The notes under the pieces: generated by a model
Databases searched by the model: none
What the model saw: only the letters and a program-made list of their open reading frames with translations
Told to the model about the DNA's origin: nothing
In this document: in pieces, positions 7,099-42,703 of the stretch
How positions within the stretch are numbered: position 1 is the stretch's first letter
Layout: each line of letters starts with the position of its first letter
Program-made: the position numbers and the translations under genes
DNA from: a virus
Taxonomy: Duplodnaviria; Caudoviricetes
Direction: 5' to 3' (one strand)
Virus record (IMG/VR): IMGVR_UViG_3300023194_000002
Coordinates: 1-64,000 of that record
DNA length: 64,000 nt

Positions 7099-7638
7099 AT
7101 GGCCGTCACGCCCAAATTTACGATCGTCGACAAGGACCATGGTTACGCGGCCATGCAAAGCCTTGTCGCGCGTATTGGGCGTATGAGACAGGCCACGGTT
7201 ACTGTCGGCATCCAGGGCGCCAATGCTTCACGCACGAAGCGTGGGCGCCCAAGGTTCTCCTCGCGAAAGAGCAAAAGTGTTAGGCGACGTAAACGCAGCG
7301 GTGCGGCTCTCACAGTCGCAGAGGTTGGTGCGATCCATGAGTTTGGCTCAGGTCGCATCCCCAAACGCTCGTTCATCAAGGGCACCATCGACCAGCAGCG
7401 CGCGCAGATTCTCCGGCGCATGGAGATCGGTGGTGAAGGTGTTCTGACTGGCAAGCTGGACCAGCGCACCGCGATGGAGCTGATCGGCGAGTACACCGTC
7501 GGCCGCATCAAGCAGCGCATGGCGAACGGTATCTCGCCGGCGAACGCGCCCAGCACGATCGCGCGCAAGGGCTCCAGCACGCCGCTGGTCGACACTGGTC
7601 AACTGCGGAACTCCATCACCTACGAGGTGCATGAGTGA
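7099..7638 (+). CDS. Neck/tail-completion protein
   Basis: GAIHEFG..IPKRSFI, NAPSTIARKGSSTPLVDTGQLRNSITY. Confidence 0.8.
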   Translation: MAVTPKFTIVDKDHGYAAMQSLVARIGRMRQATVTVGIQGANASRTKRGRPRFSSRKSKSVRRRKRSGAALTVAEVGAIHEFGSGRIPKRSFIKGTIDQQRAQILRRMEIGGEGVLTGKLDQRTAMELIGEYTVGRIKQRMANGISPANAPSTIARKGSSTPLVDTGQLRNSITYEVHE

Positions 7639-16722: not shown

Positions 16723-19286
16723 TGAGCGTTGTTGCTGAACTGATCGCGAAACTTGGCTTCGCTGTAGACCAAGGCACCGTTGCGCGCGCTGAACAAGCGT
16801 TGAAGCGCATCGGTGAAGAGTCCAAAGGTCTAGAGTCGAAGTCTTCGACGATCACGCCAAAGGTCGACACACACCAGGCCGAGAACAAGCTGGCGAAGCT
16901 CGCGGAGGGCTTCGAGAAGCTGATGCAGTTCGCCGGCGGTATAGGCCTTGCCGAAGTCGGGCGCCAGCTGCTGGAAATGGGCAACGCGGCCAACGAGACG
17001 CAGGACACGCTGCGCGATCTGTTCGGCGCGGACGGGGCCGCGCGTGTCAACGCGTGGGCGGATCAGTTCGCGAGCGCCGCGGGTCAGTCACGCTTTCAGA
17101 TGCGCAAGTTCGCCGAGGATCTCGGCGTGCTGTTAGAGCCAGCGCTCGGTCATAACTCTGCGGCTGCAGAGAATATGTCCGAGAAGCTGGTCGAGGTCGC
17201 AGTCAACCTCGGCGCGATGAAGAACATCAAGCCTGAGCAGGCTGTCGACGATATGCGTTCGGCACTCGCTGGCAGCACTGAGGTGTTGGCGAAATACGGC
17301 ATCCGTTTGCAGGAGAACGTGCTCAAGGAAAAGGCCAGGAAACAAGGCCTTTCTGACACGATTTCAGAGCTCACGCAGACGCAGAAGACTCAGCTCATCT
17401 ACAACACGATCCTAGAGCAGTCGGCCAAGCATATGGGTCGAGCTGCGGCCGAGTCGCACGAGTTTGGAGGCGCGTCTGTAGCGCTTCAAGGCAGGCTCCA
17501 TGACCTCGGCGTGACGCTGGGCCAATCAGTCATAGGTCCGGCAACGCAGTTCCTGAACTGGGCAAACAGTGCTGTTGTTGGGCTGCAGGATCTGGTCGAG
17601 CATACAGACGGCGCTGAGTCAGCGATGTATGCCTTGGCGATAGCTGCCGCTGCACTGGCCGCACCGATGCTCGCGTCATTTGCTGTGCCTGCTGCAGCCG
17701 CAGCTGCGCTGGTGCTCGCCATCAGCGAGATTCACACCACGCTTGCCGGCGGCGACTCGTACATTCGTGATTGGCTGAATGAGCTGTATGGCGTCGAGGG
17801 CGCGCAGCGTGTGATCGACGAGTTCGACGAAGCGCTGAAAGGCGCAGTCGGTACCACCAAGGATTTACTGACCAGCGCGCATGAGCTGCATGAAGGGCTC
17901 AAGCCGCTGCTCGAAGTGCTGAGCGCGATCGCTAAAGTCGTAGGCTCTGTCACGGGAACCGTGTTCGGAGGCATCTACCGATTTGCGGGCCAGCTGGGCC
18001 TGTCTGCGACAAGCGCGGATGAGCGAGATCGAGATGCACGCATCCCGCAGCTGCAACAGGAGATTGAGCGCACGGAGCAAAGTCTAGACCGTGGCGAGAT
18101 CGCTCCTCAGGACCGCAAGCGCGTCGAGTTGGAGCAGGCTGCGCGACGACGTGAGCTCACGCAGTTGGAGACGGCGCGCGATGAGCAAATTGACTTGGCT
18201 CCGGGCGCCGAGCTCGCCAAAGCGCGTGAGCGGCGTCGGCGCAACATCGAGCAGTTCGGCAATGCGTACGGCGTAGACCTGCCGTCAGCGCGCGCGCAGC
18301 AGGCCACTAACGAGAGCGTGCCCGTAGCGCTGCGAGCTGCTAACGCGCCGTCAGCGCCCGCCGCGAGGCCGTCCATCATGCTGACGCCCGATGAGGTTAA
18401 TCAGCGTGAGAATCAGCGCGCACGCGTCGCGTCGACAGAACATGGTCAGGTCGCAACCCCGCTCGACGACAGCCGTGTGGCTGCTACGCAGGCGGGCGCT
18501 GTTGGTGCGTCGTCTGAGGACGCTTTCCGGCGCGCGAGAGCGGACTATGAGAGGTCGCACAGAGCGGTCCCAGCGCAACCTGCGGCGCTGGCACCAGAAG
18601 CGCAGTTGGCACAGCTAACGTCAACGCAGCCCGCGCTACCAGAGACGCTGGAGCAGCGTCCGCAGCCAGCTCCTACTGTGGTGGTCGAGCCTGCTCCGGC
18701 TGCTCCAGCAAACGTCGCGCCGTCCATCGAGGTCGCCGCGCCGCAGCTCCCTACCGCTCAGCAGCCTGATCAGCCTTTGCAGCTCACAGCGGCGCCGAGC
18801 CCTGCGCCCATCGTTGAAGTAGCGTTGCAAGCGCCGCAGGCCGCGCCAGCGCCATCTATAGAGCGCCCTCAGCTGCAGCCGCTACAATTGGAGCAGCCGC
18901 AGAAGCTTGAGCAACCCACGCAGCTGTCGGCTGCGCCTGCGCCGGCCGAGCAGCTCCCACGCCTAACGCCTTCGCTCGCTACCGCGGACTCGCAGCTCCA
19001 ATCCCCTGCAGTGCTGCAGCCCGCTGTGGCACCGCTGCTCGATCGGCAGATGACCGCATCGCCGCTCGTGCTCGCACAGGCCTCGGCGACTGCAGAGACG
19101 GCAGGCGCGACATCAGGCGCCGCAGCAGGCACGCAGGACGCCGCCCCCGTCATCAACCAGACGAACACGATCAACGTTAGCACCAGCCAAAACGCGGATG
19201 AGATCGCGCGCGTCGCACGCCAGGTGATGGACGACAACGCGCGTCAGATTGGCGCGAACCTCCCACGCAGAGGCGCGCCGCGATGA
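16722..19286 (+). CDS. Tape measure protein with Pro/Ala/Gln-rich C-terminal third
   Basis: Helical Ala-rich protein, ELIAKLGFAVD N-terminus, after chaperones. Confidence 0.85.
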   Translation: MSVVAELIAKLGFAVDQGTVARAEQALKRIGEESKGLESKSSTITPKVDTHQAENKLAKLAEGFEKLMQFAGGIGLAEVGRQLLEMGNAANETQDTLRDLFGADGAARVNAWADQFASAAGQSRFQMRKFAEDLGVLLEPALGHNSAAAENMSEKLVEVAVNLGAMKNIKPEQAVDDMRSALAGSTEVLAKYGIRLQENVLKEKARKQGLSDTISELTQTQKTQLIYNTILEQSAKHMGRAAAESHEFGGASVALQGRLHDLGVTLGQSVIGPATQFLNWANSAVVGLQDLVEHTDGAESAMYALAIAAAALAAPMLASFAVPAAAAAALVLAISEIHTTLAGGDSYIRDWLNELYGVEGAQRVIDEFDEALKGAVGTTKDLLTSAHELHEGLKPLLEVLSAIAKVVGSVTGTVFGGIYRFAGQLGLSATSADERDRDARIPQLQQEIERTEQSLDRGEIAPQDRKRVELEQAARRRELTQLETARDEQIDLAPGAELAKARERRRRNIEQFGNAYGVDLPSARAQQATNESVPVALRAANAPSAPAARPSIMLTPDEVNQRENQRARVASTEHGQVATPLDDSRVAATQAGAVGASSEDAFRRARADYERSHRAVPAQPAALAPEAQLAQLTSTQPALPETLEQRPQPAPTVVVEPAPAAPANVAPSIEVAAPQLPTAQQPDQPLQLTAAPSPAPIVEVALQAPQAAPAPSIERPQLQPLQLEQPQKLEQPTQLSAAPAPAEQLPRLTPSLATADSQLQSPAVLQPAVAPLLDRQMTASPLVLAQASATAETAGATSGAAAGTQDAAPVINQTNTINVSTSQNADEIARVARQVMDDNARQIGANLPRRGAPR

Positions 19287-19816
19287 CAGTCCCGGTCACA
19301 CACCTAGAGATCGATGACGTGTGGTTTGACGGCACGCTGACGCAGACGATCGTCTACCACACACTCGTCACAGACTTCCCGACCGAGGAAGACAACATCT
19401 CGGACAACTACATCCTGACGGGACGGTCTGTGCAGATCGAAGCGCTCGTATCGGAGTATCCGATCGAAGAACCTATGTCACATGCGGGAGACCGTGTGTT
19501 CGGTACTTATCAGGCGATTCAGGAGATCATCAATCAGCACAAGTTGGTCAACGTGATCGTCGGGTTAGACGTGCTGCGTAACTGCGCGCTCGAAAACCCG
19601 AGGTTTGATCTCATGGGCGCAGGCCGAGCTCACAAATTCACCTGCACCGCGCGTGAAGTAAAATTCGCAACCACGAAGGAAGCATCGGTCCCTAAGCCTG
19701 TCGTCGCGAAAAAGAAGTCAGCGGATAAGGGGCAGGTAAACGCGACGCCTGCAACCGATGCACAGGCTGCGAAGGCCAAACAATCACTCGCGAAATACGT
19801 GTTAGGCGGCGGATAA
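19283..19816 (+). CDS. Baseplate/distal tail (tube initiator-like) protein
   Basis: VTDFPTEE..ISDN motif; position after TMP. Confidence 0.65.
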   Translation: MTVPVTHLEIDDVWFDGTLTQTIVYHTLVTDFPTEEDNISDNYILTGRSVQIEALVSEYPIEEPMSHAGDRVFGTYQAIQEIINQHKLVNVIVGLDVLRNCALENPRFDLMGAGRAHKFTCTAREVKFATTKEASVPKPVVAKKKSADKGQVNATPATDAQAAKAKQSLAKYVLGGG

Positions 19817-32575: not shown

Positions 32576-32826
32576 GCCGATCCAGAAAGAGCAAGCTTTG
32601 TCGCACATGCGGCCTTTGTCGATATATCTCAGGAAGCACGCGCTACCGGCGCATTCGCGACCGAGATGCAGACGCCTCCTGCGTGAAGACATCCGTGAAT
32701 CGACTCAAGCAGCGCGATCAGGTCTTTTTGCCAGATTGCCGGTTTGTGAACCCGCGCTGCGCCCGAGATGAGAGATCGGGCCCCAAATATCAAAATGTGA
32801 TATTTGGGCGTTTTGAAGGTTTCGAG

Positions 32827-33117
32827 CTATGCGGGTGCGTTTCGCTCAAGCCATTCAATATCGCCGCCGCTGATCCAGTAGTGAGTCCTGCACGGGATCT
32901 GATAGTTGCCGATCGACGGGCTAAGCGACGGGCCGCATGGCGCATCCGCAAACGTCCACCCTGTCGGACCGAGAGGTGTCACTACCTTGTTTCCGCATCC
33001 GCAAGCACAGAGGTGAATCGCGACGTCGAACTCGTCCGAGACGTACAGGATGCCGGGTTCCAGATCCTCTGGCATGTACCGGACGTGCCGGAGACCTAGT
33101 CTTGTTAGCTTTGCCAT
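32827..33117 (-). CDS. DUF6527-like Cys/His protein
   Basis: IHLCACGCGNKVVTPL..GW..SLSPSIGNYQIPCRTHYWI. Confidence 0.75.
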   Translation of the reverse strand: MAKLTRLGLRHVRYMPEDLEPGILYVSDEFDVAIHLCACGCGNKVVTPLGPTGWTFADAPCGPSLSPSIGNYQIPCRTHYWISGGDIEWLERNAPA

Positions 33118-33371
33118 CGCCGCTGACCATGTTACCCATTTTGCCGACGCCAGCAAAATGGTAGATTGCCTCTCGGCAACGCACGCCGCCGGCAATCCGG
33201 TTTCACACAACTCGCCGCATAGGCATTGGCCCGCTGAGCTCCCCAGCTCGCGGGCCTTTTCGTTGCTGCAGCTGATCGGCAGCGTCCATACGTGTAGACG
33301 ACGCTACTAGTCGATACTGTCCAATCGACCCTGGAAGCTGATCCCGAAAACGTAAAGGCGCACTTGCCGCT

Positions 33372-33791
33372 TTACCCAAAATCCGCCCAGGACCATGGAG
33401 GCTCATCGCGGGTGTCGCCGTCCTGGTCTGGCGGCGGCGCAAGCGTTTTAGAATACTCCAAAAGCCAGTGCGAAAGCGCTGACTCGGCCGTCAACATCAC
33501 GCGCTCCGCGATGTCGAGCGCGCCGTCGACCGTCCCTCTTAAGAAGGAGGAATGGCCCGTTGGGGGACTGAAATAGATACGATACACCCAGAGCAGCTTC
33601 TCCTCGCCATGAGCAAGCGGAGAAAGCTCGTCTGTCTCGGGGTCAAGCGAGAACAGTTCTCCCGTGTCCGAATCGCATTCGTCGGCAAAGGAATGGGTGA
33701 TCGTGCAGAAGAATACTCCCGATTGCGCTGTATATTCGGCGTCCGAGACGCCGGGGTCTAATGGCTCCTCTTCTTTCCATTGTAGCTTCAT
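33372..33791 (-). CDS. Hypothetical acidic protein
   Basis: ORF MKLQWKEEEPLD...; no family recognised. Confidence 0.55.
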   Translation of the reverse strand: MKLQWKEEEPLDPGVSDAEYTAQSGVFFCTITHSFADECDSDTGELFSLDPETDELSPLAHGEEKLLWVYRIYFSPPTGHSSFLRGTVDGALDIAERVMLTAESALSHWLLEYSKTLAPPPDQDGDTRDEPPWSWADFG

Positions 33792-33902
33792 GCGTGGGCC
33801 CCTCTTATTTAATCGCAAACCGTTTCCGCTCACTACAGGAGCAGCAAACGCCTGTATATGCAGCGTTTGCTTATTTAAGCAGAACATCCGCTGTGCGAGC
33901 CG

Positions 33903-34283
33903 CTACCGAGAAACGCCAACCTCGAAGCCGTGCACCTTCAGTCGTCGTGCGCAATCCCACGTGCCGCGGCTATCCGGCCCGGGCAGCGCCAGACAGATAA
34001 CATCCCAGCCGTGATCACGGGCCTCTGCGGCTTTGTCCGCGATGCGCTGATTGCGTTCGAGCAGCGCGACTCGGGTGCGCGGGCCTTCGACGCGCATCAC
34101 GCGTAGAGGCTTGCCCGCGGCCGTCGCGATCTCGACTGCGAGCGCGTCAGCTCCAGTCGGGCAGTCACCGACGATCACGACGTCGGCCAGCGCCGTAATC
34201 GTGGCATCGATATCGGCGCGCTGATTGGCCGTGAGCTCTCCACGCGTGCCCGTGATCACGACTGCGGTGCGAGGCTTGGTCAT
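33903..34283 (-). CDS. SLOG/YspA-like (DUF2493) protein
   Basis: VVITGTRG, GDCPTGADALA, RNQRI, SRGTWDC; ATG overlaps FtsK stop. Confidence 0.8.
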   Translation of the reverse strand: MTKPRTAVVITGTRGELTANQRADIDATITALADVVIVGDCPTGADALAVEIATAAGKPLRVMRVEGPRTRVALLERNQRIADKAAEARDHGWDVICLALPGPDSRGTWDCARRLKVHGFEVGVSR

Positions 34284-36451
34284 GGATTGAGCACAGGCCG
34301 TTGGTTCTTCTGCGCGGGATCCATGGGCCCGAGGATGCCCTCGCGCTCCAGCTGCATCAGTGCACGTTTGGCGCGTGGCTGGCCGATCGACATTTCGCAC
34401 ATCACTGCGCTGACAGACACCCAGCGTTGTCCTCGGACGTACGTCAGTAATCGATTGTGCAGCTCATCATCACTCAGCTGCACGGGCGCTGCTGGTGCAG
34501 CGGGCTCGGTTGTGGTGGGCGTCTCGATGACAGCCTGTTTACCGCTCTGCGCGCGCCATGCGGCGCATACGGCCTTCACCTCGTCCGGGCTGATATACGC
34601 GCTGTGCACGCGCTGCCATTCGGTCGACCCAGGCAGCATGCAGAGGCTATCTCCACGACCGAGTAGCTTTTCGGCGCCGCGGATGTCCATGACGGTCTCG
34701 CTGTCTTTGCCGGATGACACCTTGTAGGTGATACGAGTGGAGAAGTTGGCTTTGATAATGCCAGTAACGACATCCACGCTCGGGCGCTGCGTTGCGAGTA
34801 TGAGGTGCATTCCGGCTGCGCGTCCCTCTGCGGCGATGCGTGAGATCAGCAGTTCAGCCTCTTTTGCCTGAGAGATGAATGACGCGAACTCATCGATCGC
34901 GATCACGACGCGGTGATAGGGCGCATTGGACCGCGCGTTGTATTCAGCGATCTCCGACTCGCCGACTGCAGCCATGGTGGTGTAGCGGCGTTCCATCTCC
35001 TCGAGCGCCCATCGGAGCAATGCAATCCCGTCTGCAGACTGCACCGCGATCGGCGCGAGCAAATGAGGGATGCCAGCGTAGCGCGATAGCTCGACGCGTT
35101 TGGGGTCGATCATCAAGATGCGCATCTCGCTAGGTTTGCGCGTGAGCAACAGTGCCGTGAGCCAGCAGTTGAGGCCGACGCTCTTGCCTGAACCGGTGGT
35201 GCCAGCGACCAACAAGTGTGGAGCGCTGGCGAGATCGAGATACACGGGCGTGCGATCTGGAGCGAGGCCGAGCGGCATGGGGAGTGCGGCCGAGCGGCGA
35301 AGCGCGGTCCACTCGTCGCACTCCATCAGTTCACGCAGCATGACCGTCTGACGATCCTCCTCGTCGAGTGGGACCTCCATTAGGGTGACCTTCCCGCGCT
35401 GAGTTACGTTCACATGCAGCGTGTCGAGCGCCTGCGCGATCTCGGGCGCGAGCTTCTTGATCGTGCTGATTTTCGTTCCTGCAGGTGGCTCGTACTCGTA
35501 ATACGCGAGCATCGGCCCCACGTCGCCGCCAGAGACCTGGCCGCCGATGATCTCGTGCTGGTAGAGCGCACGCGTGATCTTTTTGCGGCCGGCGTCGAGC
35601 GCGCGCTGCTTGCCTGCTTTTGTGCGCTCCTTCGGTGTTGCGAGGCGCCGAATGTCCGGGAGTACGTACACAACGGGAGCAGCGTTTGGCGCTGCAATTC
35701 CCGGTAAATCCTGCTCATCGCTGTCCACCGAGGACTCGATGATGTCCGGACCGTTGTCCACGCTGTTGTCCGGCGCGTAGTCCCTCACATCAACGATGCG
35801 AGCACGCGGCGTCGGCAGCGGAGGGCGCTTCGACGGCGCCGGGTGTGACGCGGGCACCGACTCGCGCACAGTCTCTCCGTGCGTGTCGATCACGGCCTGA
35901 GGCGCGTACACACGGGGCCGTGCAGCAGCGGACGGAGCGGGTGCACGCGTAGACGCAGACAGCGCACGCGCAGCAGCAGCCTGACGCTCGATTTCACGAG
36001 CGCGAGTCCATTCGGAGGCGAACCGACGGGCCATCGAGCCGACGCGCGCGCTCAGCTGCTGCGCATGCGCAGGGCCCATAGCGCGCCGCGCAATTGCCAC
36101 CAGCACGATGGCCAGCAGTACGTAGGCCCCGAGCCCGAAGCCGCGATGAAGCCCCCCGCCCACCATTGAGCCGACGTGCCCAGACGGCGCGCCCAGCAGA
36201 TCGAGCGTCGCGGGCAGGCCCACGAGCGACAGGCTCCACCACACGCGCACGATGCCGGGGCTGCGCTGGCTGACAGTCCACCACGACTCCGCGGCGAGCC
36301 AGCCCACACAGCACCATGTGGCCCAGCCGAATGACGATGATAGCCACGCAGCAAGGCCATCCCCTGCGCGACCGAGTAGGCCGGCCAGCGCTGAGGCGAG
36401 CAGCAGCGCTGTGCCGGCGTAGGTGATTGCGTCCTTGCTGCGGCGGGTCAT
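34280..36451 (-). CDS. ftsK: Full-length FtsK/SpoIIIE-like DNA translocase (N-terminal TMs, motor, C-terminal gamma wHTH)
   Basis: Walker A GTTGSGKS, IAIDEF, HLILATQRPSVDVVTGIIKANF, GAEKLLGRGD; C-terminal DDELH...REGILGP. Confidence 0.93.
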   Translation of the reverse strand: MTRRSKDAITYAGTALLLASALAGLLGRAGDGLAAWLSSSFGWATWCCVGWLAAESWWTVSQRSPGIVRVWWSLSLVGLPATLDLLGAPSGHVGSMVGGGLHRGFGLGAYVLLAIVLVAIARRAMGPAHAQQLSARVGSMARRFASEWTRAREIERQAAAARALSASTRAPAPSAAARPRVYAPQAVIDTHGETVRESVPASHPAPSKRPPLPTPRARIVDVRDYAPDNSVDNGPDIIESSVDSDEQDLPGIAAPNAAPVVYVLPDIRRLATPKERTKAGKQRALDAGRKKITRALYQHEIIGGQVSGGDVGPMLAYYEYEPPAGTKISTIKKLAPEIAQALDTLHVNVTQRGKVTLMEVPLDEEDRQTVMLRELMECDEWTALRRSAALPMPLGLAPDRTPVYLDLASAPHLLVAGTTGSGKSVGLNCWLTALLLTRKPSEMRILMIDPKRVELSRYAGIPHLLAPIAVQSADGIALLRWALEEMERRYTTMAAVGESEIAEYNARSNAPYHRVVIAIDEFASFISQAKEAELLISRIAAEGRAAGMHLILATQRPSVDVVTGIIKANFSTRITYKVSSGKDSETVMDIRGAEKLLGRGDSLCMLPGSTEWQRVHSAYISPDEVKAVCAAWRAQSGKQAVIETPTTTEPAAPAAPVQLSDDELHNRLLTYVRGQRWVSVSAVMCEMSIGQPRAKRALMQLEREGILGPMDPAQKNQRPVLNP

Positions 36452-36582
36452 GGGCGGCACTCCTGGAGCAATTGAAGCGCGATGCAGGTCGCACAGCGGC
36501 GCTCGAGGAGCGCGCAGAACACGCCGCCTGCTGCAGCTGTGATGAGCATGGTGATCACGATCGCGCGGCTCATGGGCGTCAT
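36448..36582 (-). CDS. Small membrane protein (44 aa), absent from ORF track
   Basis: MTPMSRAIVITMLITAAAGGVFCALL...; overlapping start/stop codons on both sides. Confidence 0.65.
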   Translation of the reverse strand: MTPMSRAIVITMLITAAAGGVFCALLERRCATCIALQLLQECRP

Positions 36583-36812
36583 GGTGGTGTCCTCACAGAT
36601 CGGCAGAACGCGCAGGTGCACCCCTGCTTTGCGCGCGGATATGACCTGCCGTATTGGTCGAACGAGAAGCCGTGCGGCGCCTCGTCTCGCGGTCGAGGTG
36701 GTAGAGGCGGATTGTCAGATGCCCGCAGCGACGCGAGCAGCACGAGCCACCCGCGACGCAGTACACGTGCGATCTGCACCCCGAGCGCGTCTAGTAGGTC
36801 GTAGAGCATCAC
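36579..36812 (-). CDS. Small protein with C-terminal CxCxxC
   Basis: Translationally coupled to both neighbours. Confidence 0.6.
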   Translation of the reverse strand: MMLYDLLDALGVQIARVLRRGWLVLLASLRASDNPPLPPRPRDEAPHGFSFDQYGRSYPRAKQGCTCAFCRSVRTPP

Positions 36813-36979
36813 GACTCCCCGCGATCGCCGTCGTACGAGTAGTCATAGGACTCGACACGATCGCGATGACCGCCTACGCGGATCGGCACGAAGTAGCCAT
36901 GGGGCGCGGTCGACTCCAAATAGAGGCCGACCGCGATCGTCACGAACCATGTCAAAAAGAGGCCCTGCCAAAAGGTCAT
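36809..36979 (-). CDS. Small membrane protein
   Basis: MTFWQGLFLTWFVTIAVGLYL; coupled. Confidence 0.6.
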   Translation of the reverse strand: MTFWQGLFLTWFVTIAVGLYLESTAPHGYFVPIRVGGHRDRVESYDYSYDGDRGES

Positions 36980-37389
36980 CGGCCCCTCCGGACGTGCATG
37001 CGCGTGCGCGCTGGTCTCTCGGGCTCGGGCTCGTAGTCCCAGTCGTCGCGCTGCTGGTCCCAGATGCCGTCTGGGCCTGGGGAGTAGAACCCAGCACGCA
37101 CAGATCCGCCCGTACGCACAGGGTCGTGTGTATCCCGACGCGCGGTCTCTCCCGTCGATGACCACCAGCCGCCGATCGCCATCGCCAGCACGGCGATCAG
37201 GATCATGAGGGGTACTGATGAGATCGTCTCTACAGCTGCGGCGGCGGCGGGTGCAGGCGGATCCGTGGGCGTGATTGCCCTCAGCCGGTCCAGCGCGTCG
37301 GACTTCGACGCCCGGGCCTTGATTTCGGCGAGGTGCTGCTCGGCCATCTCGGCCTCGATCTGCAGTCTCATTGTGTCGTTTGATGCCAT
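36976..37389 (-). CDS. Single-pass membrane protein with N-terminal coiled coil
   Basis: AAGGAGA RBS; LMILIAVLAMAIGGWW TM segment. Confidence 0.7.
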   Translation of the reverse strand: MASNDTMRLQIEAEMAEQHLAEIKARASKSDALDRLRAITPTDPPAPAAAAAVETISSVPLMILIAVLAMAIGGWWSSTGETARRDTHDPVRTGGSVRAGFYSPGPDGIWDQQRDDWDYEPEPERPARTRMHVRRGR

Positions 37390-37492
37390 TTGTCTCCTTT
37401 CGTGCAAATCGTATGCGTTTGCATAGATTGTATACAATGTATCAGACGTTGACGCTCGCCACGTTCGCTGTGACAGTAGCGGACGCTTACAC

Positions 37493-37708
37493 ATGACTAA
37501 GAAGCCCCGAGAATCCGTCTCGCTCCGCCTATCCCCCGAGATCATCGAGGAGGTGGACGAGATCATCGCGCTCGCTCAGTCGATCCTCGGCACGGAGGCG
37601 ATGACGCGACCTGCCATCTATAGAGAGATCGTGCAGGCTGGGGCGAAAGCCGTGCGGGCTAAGTACGAAGCGCTGGCTAAGCACCAGGCTTCGCAGAAGA
37701 AGCGCTAG
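37493..37708 (+). CDS. Ribbon-helix-helix regulator
   Basis: ESVSLRLSPEIIEEVD; divergent from FtsK operon. Confidence 0.7.
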   Translation: MTKKPRESVSLRLSPEIIEEVDEIIALAQSILGTEAMTRPAIYREIVQAGAKAVRAKYEALAKHQASQKKR

Positions 37709-38556
37709 GCCACTCCCCTCCTGCTCGGCAGTCGCGTCACCTGACTCTCAGGCTCGCTCTCCATCGAGGGCATGAGCGCTCGGCGACGCAGGTCACCGAG
37801 CTGAACGGCAGACATGATCAACGGTCGAGGTCCACCAGGCACGGGTGCGCCGACGACGCCGTCAGCCTCCAGCCGAGCCACCGTGCGGGCGATTTTGTCC
37901 GTGCCCATGCGCAGGTCACGCTTCAGGGCTGCCCCGCTGCACTGGCCAGCGCGGGCGATGTAATCGAGCACGCCGGCATACTCGGCGTCAGGGGATGTGG
38001 TGGCTAGGGGTGGCTCGTCTACCATCGCCTGCAGGGCTGCCCTGGTCGCCTGCGCTGGCAGAGCAGCCCTGGCCGGCTTCGGGCGAGGGGCTGGCACCGC
38101 GATCACCTCGATGTCGGTCGCTCGGTCCGCGGCATCCTGCAGGGCTGCCTGGCAGGCTGCCCCGGTAGCGTTAATCAGCACCAGGACCGCGAGCGCGGCC
38201 AGGTCCACCCACGGATGGAGCTGCACCGCGACGATGCCCTCGGTCAGGGCAACCAGCCCAATAGCGTGGCTGACCGGCCAGTGCCGGCGGAAGAGGTCGA
38301 CCCCGACGCGGAACACCGTTGGTGAGGAGGCGTAGAGACCTAGACCCCACAGGTACCAGTAGGGGTTCTCGGGACCAGCAAAGGTAATCTCGCCATCCTG
38401 CCAGGTGATCAGGTGGCCGAGGTGGCTCAGCGCATAGAGCGCGAGCGGGATAGCCGCGCCGATGGGCGCAGCCATCAGGGCAGCACCGGGGTTGCGGCGA
38501 GCGATCCTCAGCTGATGGAACAGCCCGGGTCGCTCGCTCGTGTGCATCGTGTCCAT
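37705..38556 (-). CDS. Multi-pass membrane protein with C-terminal FtsK-gamma-like winged helix
   Basis: Several hydrophobic segments; EYAGVLDYIARAGQCSGAALKRDLRMGTDKIARTVARLEADGVVG. Confidence 0.7.
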   Translation of the reverse strand: MDTMHTSERPGLFHQLRIARRNPGAALMAAPIGAAIPLALYALSHLGHLITWQDGEITFAGPENPYWYLWGLGLYASSPTVFRVGVDLFRRHWPVSHAIGLVALTEGIVAVQLHPWVDLAALAVLVLINATGAACQAALQDAADRATDIEVIAVPAPRPKPARAALPAQATRAALQAMVDEPPLATTSPDAEYAGVLDYIARAGQCSGAALKRDLRMGTDKIARTVARLEADGVVGAPVPGGPRPLIMSAVQLGDLRRRALMPSMESEPESQVTRLPSRRGVA

Positions 38557-38746
38557 ACGTATCAATCGTATACGAAACGCACGCCAGGGCAACCAGCCAC
38601 CCTTGGCCGGGTCGCCTGCATGTGAGGGACCCGGCCAGGCAATGGTCAGAGCAGGTGATGGCTACCGGTGGATGAGCTACCGGGGGAGATGTGATGACGT
38701 CTCGCTGGACCGCCCCCCGGCATCCTGTGATAATAGGAGCCGCCCT

Positions 38747-38911
38747 ATGTCGACCAAACAACAACCCGTCATCGATGTCCCTATGCAGTCCGATGCCGAG
38801 CGCGCCGAAGACAGCGCAGTTGTGACGCGTGACGCTCACGATGCGTTCGTGTGGTCGGCCGCGCGCATTATGCTGGCGTTCGACGAGACCTTCCGACGGC
38901 TTGCCGAGTGA
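38747..38911 (+). CDS. Putative Phd-type antitoxin
   Basis: 54 aa ending FDETFRRLAE; overlaps doc start (GTGA). Confidence 0.6.
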   Translation: MSTKQQPVIDVPMQSDAERAEDSAVVTRDAHDAFVWSAARIMLAFDETFRRLAE

Positions 38912-39339
38912 GCAGCGCTGAGCCGCGATTCCTGACGCTGGACGACGTGCTGCGTCTTCATACGTGGCAGCTAGAGCAGTACGGCGGAAGCGCCGGTGTG
39001 CGCGATCAGGGGCTGCTCGAAGCAGCGATCGCGCAGCCTCAGGCAGGCTTTGGCGGTGAATATCTGCACGCTGACATCTGGGAGATGGCCGCGGCATACC
39101 TGTTCCACATCGTACAGAACCATCCCTTCATCGATGGAAACAAGCGCGCGGGCCTATACTCAGCGCTTGTGTTTCTGGACGTGAACAGGCACTCGCCAAT
39201 CGGTTGGTCCAATGCCGAGATGTTCGCGCTCACCGTGCGCGTCGCATCTGGCGAACTCCACAAGCCTGGAGTCGCCGACGCATTTAGGCGCCTGGGGGTG
39301 CTTGAACGTCCCCCCCAGGTTCCTCTCCTCTGCCGATAA
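38908..39339 (+). CDS. doc: Doc/Fic family toxin
   Basis: HPFIDGNKRAG Fic motif; GVRDQGLLEAAIAQP. Confidence 0.9.
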   Translation: MSSAEPRFLTLDDVLRLHTWQLEQYGGSAGVRDQGLLEAAIAQPQAGFGGEYLHADIWEMAAAYLFHIVQNHPFIDGNKRAGLYSALVFLDVNRHSPIGWSNAEMFALTVRVASGELHKPGVADAFRRLGVLERPPQVPLLCR

Positions 39340-39416
39340 TGTGTCTCAAACCCCGTTATAACGGGTTTGGAGACATCTTTCCGACGGAGGAGGGGAATCG
39401 TGCCCGGGGGAGACGT
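39306..39416. repeat. Long imperfect hairpin element, copy 1
   Basis: Near-palindromic core TGTCTCAAACCCCGTTATAACGGGTTTGGAGACA with paired purine/pyrimidine flanks; shares exact blocks with 42596-42703. Confidence 0.8.
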
Positions 39417-39422
39417 GCCGGC

Positions 39423-40538
39423 CTACCGCCCGATGAGCACGCGGCGACGACGGGTCACGGGGTCCACCGTGCTCACCACGCCCGCGGCTTCCAGGCGAGC
39501 CACCAGGGGGTAGACACGGTCCCCCAGCATGAGCTTGCGCTCCAGCCAGGAGGGCGTGAACGCGTGCATCCCCTGGAGCAGCAGGATCGCCTTCGCGTAC
39601 AGGGCATCATCAGCCGCGGTGTAGGTGGGCGTCGACGGCGGAGACATCAGCAGGGGTAACTGCTGTGGGGTTGCCTGGTCAGCGGACGAGGCGAGCGCGG
39701 CTGGGGGAGTGGTTGCTACGGGGACCAGGGCAGGCACCGGTGCAGGGGCAGCCACCCTCTTCATCAGGGCATCCAGTTCATCGACCGACGCGATGCACCA
39801 CTCGCGTGCACCCTGTAGGGCAGCGATGCCAGTCGAGGTGGCCAGTAGGCGATGGCGGATGCGCTGGATGGACTCCACGTCCGGAGCAGGTGCGGGTGGG
39901 GTTGGTGGTGCAGGGGGTGCCGGTGCTCTGACCAGCACGCGGGAGAACGTGCCTCTGGGCGCCAACTCGACGATGCCGTCGCTGATGAGGCGGCGGAAGA
40001 TGCGCTGTCCTCGGCCCGACCCAACGTGGAAGGTGCGCTTCAGCCACTCGCACGAGACCGTCTCTCGCGTCTTCACCACGGCCACGACCTGCTCGTAGAG
40101 GGGGTCGGAGGCGGGCGGAGTCGAAGCCCTGAGCGCCGGGGGAGTGGTGGGCTGGATGGCAGTGTTTGCGGACTGGGCGCGCAGGGCGCGCTTGATCACG
40201 TCTCGTGCCCAAGCGCGGAACGCATGCGCTTCCGGCGACTTCACGCGCCACATCACGTCGATCACGACGTCCGATGCGTAGTGCTTCGTGCGGTAGGCTT
40301 TGCCGTCCGCGGCAGTGCACAAGTATTCCTTGTGAACTGAATCCCAAGCACTTCCATACAGTTCTGAGATCGACCTCAGATGCAGAGCGATGTTCTGCTG
40401 TGTCGTACCGCTCATCTGGGCCATTTGGGCCTGGGTTGGCCAGAGCTCATCTGCCTCCCAGCGCACTGCCACCACGGCGCCGGTCTGCATGCTGTACTCG
40501 TACGTCACGACTTCCGTGGTACCAATCGTCTCACTCAT
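39423..40538 (-). CDS. RhuM-like DNA-binding protein with two FtsK-gamma-like domains
   Basis: LWPTQAQMAQMSGTTQQNIALHL..VKSPEAHAFRAWA; DPLYEQVV..CEWLKRTFHVGSGRGQRI; DDALYAKAI..SWLERKLML. Confidence 0.8.
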   Translation of the reverse strand: MSETIGTTEVVTYEYSMQTGAVVAVRWEADELWPTQAQMAQMSGTTQQNIALHLRSISELYGSAWDSVHKEYLCTAADGKAYRTKHYASDVVIDVMWRVKSPEAHAFRAWARDVIKRALRAQSANTAIQPTTPPALRASTPPASDPLYEQVVAVVKTRETVSCEWLKRTFHVGSGRGQRIFRRLISDGIVELAPRGTFSRVLVRAPAPPAPPTPPAPAPDVESIQRIRHRLLATSTGIAALQGAREWCIASVDELDALMKRVAAPAPVPALVPVATTPPAALASSADQATPQQLPLLMSPPSTPTYTAADDALYAKAILLLQGMHAFTPSWLERKLMLGDRVYPLVARLEAAGVVSTVDPVTRRRRVLIGR

Positions 40539-40606
40539 AGGAGTTTCCTTCCTCGTGGGTCACGACCCGGGCGATGGCCGTCGCGCCGGGTCATTTCATA
40601 CGAGCA

Positions 40607-40670
40607 CTTTTTCATACGTAAAAGTTACGCGCAATGAGGCGCGTGATTTTTACGTATGAAAAAGTTACGC
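40607..40670. promoter_or_regulatory. Operator-like 17-bp inverted repeat between divergent genes
   Basis: CTTTTTCATACGTAAAA (40607-40623) / TTTTACGTATGAAAAAG (40648-40664); direct repeat AAAAGTTACGC. Confidence 0.7.
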
Positions 40671-40891
40671 TGTTCGCTGTGGCTGCGAAGAAAAAGCCGA
40701 CAAAGCGCATGGGAAGGCCCGCCGTTCCAGACGATCAGCGTCTGACGGTGCAGATTGGCCTGAACATGACCCAATCCGACTGGGAACTGCTTGAGTCAAC
40801 GGCTGAAGAGCGAGGCGTCCGTCCGGCTGAGCTACTGAGGCAGCTGATACGCGGGCTCACGAAGCAGAAGGCGGGCAGTCCCACCCGCTGA
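40634..40891 (+). CDS. Ribbon-helix-helix regulator (start uncertain)
   Basis: GRPAVPDDQRLTVQIGLNMTQSDWELLE...RPAELLRQLI. Confidence 0.65.
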   Translation: MRRVIFTYEKVTLFAVAAKKKPTKRMGRPAVPDDQRLTVQIGLNMTQSDWELLESTAEERGVRPAELLRQLIRGLTKQKAGSPTR

Positions 40892-41002
40892 AAAATTCAG
40901 CCCGACGTCGAATTGATTGGCGCGGCTAGCAATAATTCCCTGATGGTCGCCCGGGTATTTTTACGCTCGTCGTGGAAACGGAACCGACGAACGAGGGAAC
41001 CT

Positions 41003-41188
41003 ATGGCTTTGGTGAAATGCGGCGAATGCAAGGGGCAGATCAGCACAAACGCTAAAGCGTGTCCGCACTGCGGTTCGCGGCTCAGCCCAATCACGTCGAG
41101 CATGAACCGGTTGGGCTGGGACATGATGAAGCTCGCGGTTCTTCTGGTGCTGGGGTTTTTCGCGCTGATCGTGTTTGGTAAACGCTGA
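41003..41188 (+). CDS. Zinc-ribbon membrane protein
   Basis: MALVKCGECKGQISTNAKACPHCG plus C-terminal TM. Confidence 0.75.
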   Translation: MALVKCGECKGQISTNAKACPHCGSRLSPITSSMNRLGWDMMKLAVLLVLGFFALIVFGKR

Positions 41189-41333
41189 CCAGCGGTAGCC
41201 GTGCTGGCGCGGGGGAGAGGTCCTTCGCAGCACGCAACTATGCGTATTAGCCCGCCGCCGAGCGTGGCGTCACGCCGGCGGAAGTGATCCGCCAGTGTGT
41301 ACGCGCACAGCTATCGCGCAGCTTCTAGCTCAC

Positions 41334-42595: not shown

Positions 42596-42703
42596 CTCCC
42601 CTCCTCCACTCTCCTCTGCCGATTAAGTGTCTCTAGAGCCGTTCTGGTGGGGGTTGAAACACATTTCCGACGGAGGAGACGTGGCGCTGAGCAGGGGGAG
42701 ACG
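42596..42703. repeat. Long imperfect hairpin element, copy 2
   Basis: TCTCCTCTGCCGA, TTTCCGACGGAGGAG and GGGGGAGACG shared with copy 1; first two blocks 54 bp apart in both. Confidence 0.8.

Follow-up and report, generated by a model that had tools for sequence, protein, structure and literature searches.

A Polyangiales-type FtsK translocase and a membrane-anchored gamma-domain partner in a temperate myovirus and on other mobile elements

Why should a tailed phage carry a complete FtsK translocase in an operon with small membrane proteins? The question is raised by a locus in positions 1 to 64,000 of IMGVR_UViG_3300023194_000002, a 64-kb stretch (hereafter the window) taken from the start of a virus record that is complete at 84.2 kb and has terminal repeats; the whole record is referred to as G000. 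The window encodes a portal protein, a major head protein, a tail sheath, a baseplate, a tyrosine integrase, RecT and a repressor, and its source is a temperate myovirus. The original prediction for this DNA had read the locus as a TraB/Spd-like translocation module with no known precedent in a myovirus. Our analyses suggest a different descent. The locus belongs to what appears to be a new system, a Polyangiales-derived FtsK clade together with a family of membrane proteins that carry an FtsK gamma domain (the membrane partner, Table 1), moving among phages, satellites and islands.

The phage FtsK is complete, as had been predicted. Pfam matches were obtained for its alpha (E 6e-11), motor (E 1.5e-41) and gamma (E 1.2e-5) domains, its Walker A, Walker B and arginine-finger motifs are intact, and none of the nine copies of this type of FtsK has lost its catalytic motifs. 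The match to the Pfam FtsK 4TM family was weak in the window protein (E 0.29); a profile of the cassette FtsK membrane domain recovered the N-termini of Polyangiales FtsK proteins with E values of about 1e-7 to 1e-11. Based on these profile matches, the membrane domain is of the Polyangiales FtsK type and homologous to it, that is, of the septal type.

The relationship to Polyangiales extends to the whole protein. Eight cassette-type FtsKs form a clade (support 98) that is sister to the Polyangiales chromosomal FtsK (support 99) in a tree made under a mixture model with very long branches removed, the support values being those of the Shimodaira-Hasegawa-like approximate likelihood ratio test (SH-aLRT) only. 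The cassette motor is 48-68% identical to Polyangiales FtsK (48-64% to that of Polyangium) versus 21-33% to three TraB/Tra proteins. Identity to Polyangiales follows a gradient, from 63-68% in P0129 and in G471, a Polyangiales genome, to 48-60% in the remaining copies; P0129 and P0002 count as cassette-type by their FtsK sequences. G471 has a separate chromosomal ftsK on another contig, and its cassette copy is therefore additional. Because of the placement beside Polyangiales FtsK and the difference in identity, the cassette FtsK reads as one old capture of a Polyangiales host ftsK and not as a member of the TraB lineage. The phylogeny thus points to an old, diverged clade rather than to a recent capture of a host chromosomal copy. 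When TraB and TcpA were included in trees, the TraB branches were too long to place and monophyly of the cassette group was not rejected (p-AU 0.44, approximately unbiased test). An arrangement in which TraB of pSN22 and pJV1 joined within the cassette group, with a branch length of about 10 changes per site, was discounted as long-branch attraction. Single-protein scans of IMG/VR with the window FtsK found no close relative. Since the FtsK ancestry points to Polyangiales and the cassette is present in one genome of that order (G471), the host of the phage is likely a Polyangiales myxobacterium, a bacterium with two membranes. Among sequencing runs, no RNA run was listed as containing this DNA and the single DNA run contained only 8% of the words, too little to assign a habitat.

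Profile matches placed five gamma domains in the phage genome: one in FtsK, one in the membrane partner (Pfam E 1.3e-6), two in the RhuM-like protein and one at G000 69486-69635. The prediction of four such domains in three genes therefore holds for the window, and the fifth lies outside it, at the N-terminus of a 539-amino-acid protein (G000 69462-71081, plus strand) whose remainder has no Pfam match. In the AlphaFold model of the partner, the FtsK gamma domain was the top structural match (2ve8, Z 8.7), with other winged helices within one Z unit, and superposition on 2j5p gave a root-mean-square deviation of 1.5 Å over 56 columns. The assignment of the winged helices as gamma-type accordingly relies on profiles for all five and, for the partner, also on predicted structure.

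Most of the gamma domains have diverged from the host type. The diverged copies share 21-39% identity with it and the two basal copies 62-67%; the basal pair has a host-like recognition helix, and this helix differs in each of the others. The two gamma heads of G471 each share about 62% identity with the host type. Given its drift, the gamma head of the phage motor probably no longer reads the host signal, the FtsK orienting polar sequences (KOPS), and the sequences as a whole read as an old capture followed by loss of host DNA specificity in gamma. KOPS of the Escherichia coli type occur only three times in the 84 kb.

The partner is a two-part protein whose membrane domain belongs to an unnamed family. 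Its 150-residue N-terminus was confidently modelled as four long helices and a beta hairpin, with three of the helices over the hydropathy threshold; the mean predicted local distance difference test (pLDDT) score was 83 for the whole model and 92 for the membrane domain modelled alone. As a single query the partner matched itself only, and its family of at least 35 proteins, about one third of them with gamma, was found only by profile; no protein of similar sequence was seen in the other genomes surveyed. There was no Pfam family match in 37 members of this family, no solved fold above background for the membrane domain (best Z 5.9), no significant match in BFVD, and no hit when GTDB genomes were scanned for the pattern of the family. 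Comparison of the partner family with the SpdB2 profile gave an hhalign probability of 12% and a score of 23.9, versus a maximum of 21 for shuffled sequences, a margin too small to decide for or against homology. Other leads to DUF2637/SpdB2 were weak and below threshold (Atlas features 0.76-0.77; Foldseek E 0.086 and 1.4, template modelling score no higher than 0.35); the Foldseek rows were phiC31 gp25 and DUF2637 proteins, gp25 being itself a DUF2637 relative. Comparison with SpdB of pIJ101 gave no match. Members without gamma occur on two phage-like contigs of 94 kb and 289 kb (L037:10001-10639 and L038:10001-10684) and on a small integrative element of Polyangia (L155:9781-10251), and many such members end in a conserved acidic motif (VIDAEI).

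The cassette was found in seven loci, mostly at 25-40% identity, and their conserved unit consists of the membrane partner with its C-terminal gamma, a small gene for a single-helix membrane protein, and a full FtsK. The best full-length FtsK relative, P0002, led to locus L021, and searching with the N-terminal part of FtsK turned up five further relatives, among whose contigs L029, L031 and JGI 3300050046 have both partner and FtsK. L035 came from the search for the partner family and G471 from that of Polyangiales genomes. Relative to the window, identity is about 25-35% for the partner and mostly 33-40% for FtsK. The loci lie in three phages (the window phage; L035, with terminase and portal genes; and L029, which is similar), a satellite-like element (L021, IMGVR_UViG_3300023194_000076, together with L034), an integrase/VapE element (JGI 3300050046, where the cassette was recognized by Pfam calls and the sizes of the genes), an unclassified contig (L031) and a Polyangiales genome, where the cassette is in a chromosomal island with a zeta toxin (L158 in G471). 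L021 has a partner gene, a reverse-strand regulator, genes for membrane proteins of 141 and 51 amino acids, and FtsK. A ribbon-helix-helix (RHH) repressor gene lies between partner and operon in five of the seven loci and is homologous across the window, L021, L031 and G471; in L029 and L035 the partner, small gene and ftsK are in one operon with no RHH gene in between. The expectation that the small genes would accompany FtsK elsewhere was borne out on unrelated mobile elements, where the partner and RHH genes accompany it as well. About 400 genomes each of Polyangia and Polyangiales were searched by profile, with only a few candidates scored in each genome and so not as a test of absence; they yielded one membrane-only homolog (G295) and one full cassette (G471).

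Some features of the related loci lie beside this unit. In one sub-clade ftsK is followed by a conserved gene for a protein of 168-175 amino acids of no known family (L029:3294-3803, L031:4207-4734 and L035:13375-13881); the position after ftsK is taken by a SLOG gene in the window phage, and a Panacea antitoxin is nearby in L021. Besides a recombinase, a primase and a helicase, the L021/L034 element encodes a few isolated genes of the virion region. Of these, at L021:4421-6005, one is 86% identical to window positions 7099-7638, one 58% to 19283-19816, and a small-terminase-like gene 29% to G000 82134-82607. The element is possibly a satellite of relatives of the window phage.

In the window, each of the six minus-strand genes between 37389 and 33903 overlaps its neighbor stop-to-start, in agreement with the predicted fully coupled operon; all six look coding, with a codon pattern rich in G+C at third positions, and purine-rich sites lie upstream of five of them. 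The description of its four small proteins as mostly membrane proteins stands for the three with a hydrophobic helix and not for the 77-amino-acid protein, which lacks one and has a conserved Cys motif. The similarity of the 137-amino-acid protein to its 141-amino-acid counterpart in L021 was reached by none of 500 shuffles, and significant pairs chain on to L031, L035 and L029. The RHH gene has no Pfam match of its own; its assignment, as a divergent regulator, is nevertheless supported by homology to the genes that occupy this place in L021, L031 and L158, and the L158 gene passes the Pfam RHH_1 cut-off. A locus-specific box is shared by the partner and operon promoters in all four loci tested (those with two promoters), with local alignment p values of about 0.01 in the window and no more than 0.005 in the three others (mononucleotide shuffles), and cognate pairs score above cross pairs. 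The shared boxes are consistent with the partner and operon units forming one regulon under the RHH repressor.

Table 1. Genes and regulatory DNA of the FtsK locus in the window.
Feature	Position	Strand	Basis and remarks
SLOG-like accessory protein, 126 aa (amino acids)	33903..34283	-	Pfam YAcAr E 0.019; PHROG 289 E 3e-9; coupled to ftsK in this phage only
FtsK translocase, full-length, 723 aa, core	34280..36451	-	Membrane domain, linker, alpha/beta motor, diverged gamma
Single-helix membrane protein, 44 aa, variable part	36448..36582	-	Hydropathy, overlaps, ribosome site; no homolog found
77-aa protein with C-terminal CxCxxC motif, optional part	36579..36812	-	Homologous to 99-aa gene of L158 (0/500 shuffles)
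Single-helix membrane protein, 56 aa, variable part	36809..36979	-	Hydropathy; L021 positional counterpart without detectable homology
137-aa protein, core	36976..37389	-	N-terminal helix, one membrane helix, low-complexity tail; homologous to 141-aa gene of L021
Divergent promoter region	37390..37492	.	Short box common to DNA upstream of partner gene (~38554-38580)
RHH-type repressor, core in most loci	37493..37708	+	Divergent from operon, convergent on partner gene
Membrane partner, 283 aa, core	37705..38556	-	Four-helix N-terminal membrane domain, Pro/Ala linker, C-terminal FtsK-gamma winged helix
RhuM-like N-terminus with two gamma domains	39423..40538	-	Gamma E 8e-14 (whole protein); neighbor outside the conserved cassette

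What might such a cassette do? We propose that the cassette arose in an ancestral mobile element of Polyangiales myxobacteria, around an ftsK captured from the host. The phage FtsK retains an intact motor and the membrane domain that targets FtsK to the division septum, the partner would anchor a second gamma head in the membrane, the small membrane proteins would join the complex, and the RHH repressor would control both transcription units. With the element excised or replicating as a circle, the partner would tether its DNA to the membrane and the motor would pump that DNA through the closing septum, leading to its inheritance by the daughter cells. It is the combination of an intact motor, a septal-type membrane domain, a changed gamma and a co-regulated, membrane-anchored head that suggests a membrane machine for the DNA of the element, and septal pumping would be the shortest step from the ancestor because no new envelope-crossing parts are needed. 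Septal localization, complex formation, specificity for element DNA and the role in segregation are what we infer from these features. That the cassette pumps the element's own DNA across a membrane, be it at the septum or into another cell, is in our estimation probable; that it is specifically a septal pump and tether for this DNA we propose tentatively, giving it somewhat less than an even chance.

Several observations weigh against the septal proposal. The phage has an integrase, and an integrated prophage would therefore need no segregation of its own. The membrane domain is also found without gamma and without a neighboring ftsK, and no conserved cis site was found across the cassette loci. 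Within a locus, the gamma domains of partner and motor resemble each other no more closely than non-cognate pairs do, G471 excepted; a DNA target common to both heads is accordingly unsupported. Lastly, the window FtsK is on a long branch and about equally near to other chromosomal FtsKs (52%, gammaproteobacterial), and the host is known by inference and not by observation.

A transfer system convergent with TraB/Spd would keep the pump and change its destination: the motor would push double-stranded DNA (dsDNA) of the element into a touching cell through a channel of the partner and small proteins, a route independent of the virion. The layout, with a repressor, a multi-pass DNA-binding membrane protein, small membrane proteins and one FtsK, parallels TraR/SpdB2/TraB of pSVH1, and SpdB2 homologs occur in actinophages (PMC4447253). 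A Streptomyces plasmid-phage with transfer, pZL12, is reported as well. In addition, the cassette is also on elements without capsid genes in view, a pentamer inverted-repeat array lies behind ftsK in L021, and the sub-threshold DUF2637/SpdB2 leads for the partner point in this direction. However, the motor is not of TraB descent, the hhalign result is barely above that of the shuffled controls, and no repeat array was found in the non-coding DNA scanned around the cassette even though our scan detects those of pSN22 and pJV1. Transfer would have to pass the two membranes and the wall of the likely host, and the cassette encodes neither a hydrolase nor a component for the outer membrane; AICE-type transfer (that of actinomycete integrative and conjugative elements) was limited to Actinomycetales in a survey of Actinobacteria (PMC3218068). 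We consider transfer rather unlikely on this balance, although it is the strongest of the rival readings, and it is a little more doubtful still that myxobacteria independently evolved, from their own FtsK, a dsDNA transfer free of relaxase and type IV secretion system by which phages, satellites and islands spread virion-free between touching cells.

Three other explanations are weaker. The phage FtsK and the membrane-bound gamma could compete with host FtsK at the divisome or at KOPS, such that division is delayed or the host chromosome displaced during induction. Retention of the septal membrane domain, the five gamma domains of this phage, the host-like gamma heads of G471 and a tight RHH control that would suit toxic genes are in keeping with this takeover of the host, but a decoy needs no intact motor, yet all copies have one, the host-type recognition helix is lost in most gamma heads and the cassette is also on islands without lytic genes in view, all of which makes it improbable. 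We think it very unlikely that the complex senses or ejects the DNA of competing phages: its neighbors do include conflict genes (SLOG, Doc, Panacea and zeta toxin), but these differ at every locus and the conserved core has no effector domain. The least likely explanation, in our judgment, is that of a recombination helper, in which gamma would activate XerD or a tyrosine recombinase of the element for integration, excision or dimer resolution. Gamma alone is reported to activate XerD (PMC3130261), and tyrosine recombinases are present in the window, in L034 and in the VapE element; the membrane proteins, however, would be left unexplained, and a search of the phage genome with the E. coli-type pattern gave no dif-like site.

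DNA sites that might serve the cassette were also sought. A repeat-cluster scan, which recovers the known arrays right behind traB of pSN22 and pJV1, found no clt-type array of 8-bp direct repeats in the non-coding DNA of window positions 32801-41300. At L034:13913-14024, directly behind ftsK, pentamer repeats are followed by inverted copies, a candidate loading site in L021/L034 only. The octamer GGGGGAGA, which was chosen post hoc, occurs in four copies on one strand between 38682 and 42694, compared to about 0.9 expected genome-wide; two of the copies belong to one duplicated hairpin, and the octamer is not conserved in other loci. Two imperfect 70-nt hairpin copies, 77% identical and 3.3 kb apart, are at 39323-39392 and 42609-42678. 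Two heptamers are over-represented in G000 on both strands with no skew, CCTAACA (22 versus 3.7 expected) and TATCCGC (33 versus 11). No ParA/ParB pair was noticed in a survey of open reading frames, which was not a systematic search.

Among known systems, the Polyangiales chromosomal FtsK stands as the direct ancestor in our analyses, with homologous membrane domain, alpha/beta motor and gamma in a sister clade. Compared to it, the cassette copy is a second, fast-evolving copy on mobile elements with a diverged gamma recognition helix, and its operon brings it together with membrane proteins of its own and a repressor. The likeness to TraB/Spd/clt systems (pSVH1, pSN22, pJV1, pIJ101, AICEs and the plasmid-phage pZL12) lies in the location on mobile elements and in the parts: a single motor of the FtsK type, small membrane proteins, a neighboring repressor, and a multi-pass membrane protein that includes a DNA-binding part. 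Unlike them, the cassette has a motor of other descent with low identity to theirs, an RHH rather than a GntR repressor, no clt array in the DNA scanned, and a likely host that is Gram-negative and non-mycelial. On present sequence evidence the cassette thus resembles a TraB/Spd or SpoIIIE machine in parts and is not a TraB/Spd member; the TraB/Spd-like label of the original prediction is unsupported if taken to mean membership.

The claim that there is no precedent in a myovirus was also too strong, because phage FtsKs, solo gamma genes, actinophage SpdB2 homologs and pZL12 are already published. Bastille-like Bacillus myoviruses encode an FtsK (PMC4528723), as do the cluster J mycobacteriophages, in which the gamma domains are hypervariable and the membrane domain is absent (PMC3706429); the function of these proteins is unknown. 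They share with the cassette an FtsK motor in a tailed phage and, for cluster J, a variable gamma, but are separate lineages (37-53% identity), with no membrane-gamma partner described for either. Motor-less gamma proteins are known from phages as the Sam46 small terminase and as solo gamma open reading frames of unexplained role (PMC8190038). The use of gamma as a portable DNA-binding module is common to the cassette and to solo gamma proteins (PMC8190038; PHROGs 6576, 13700 and 22882), and the RhuM-gamma and G000 69462-71081 proteins fit the solo pattern. We found no account of a gamma domain that is joined to a membrane anchor and linked with a motor cognate to it, and a literature search joining FtsK with myxobacterial terms returned nothing relevant.

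The SLOG, Doc and RhuM-gamma genes are absent from the available DNA of related loci, and we therefore regard them as local neighbors. The SLOG assignment itself is weak in Pfam and stronger in PHROG (Table 1). The two-gamma RhuM-like protein, which had been counted as part of the module, is separated from the cassette by a Fic/Doc gene (38851-39339, plus strand; Pfam E 4e-18) and was removed from it. A short open reading frame just upstream of the Fic/Doc gene, ending at 38911, probably encodes a small antitoxin. A 27-bp inverted repeat, nearly perfect, lies upstream of the RhuM-like gene at 40606-40665 and overlaps the start of a second RHH-like gene. None of the three findings that would have refuted the original prediction was made: the winged helices are gamma-type, the FtsK is not a recent host capture, and the small genes do co-occur with it elsewhere.

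The roles of phage FtsK and of solo gamma proteins have been stated to be unknown (PMC3706429; PMC8190038), and the cassette offers a compact, self-regulated and conserved unit in which to test them. It also includes a new membrane-anchored DNA-binding family. Segregation, if true, would be a mode of partition that uses neither ParAB nor filaments, and transfer, if true, would mean that TraB-like conjugation had two origins and extends beyond the mycelial actinomycetes. Both possibilities would matter for Polyangiales, an order for which, to our knowledge, few mobile elements or genetic tools are known.

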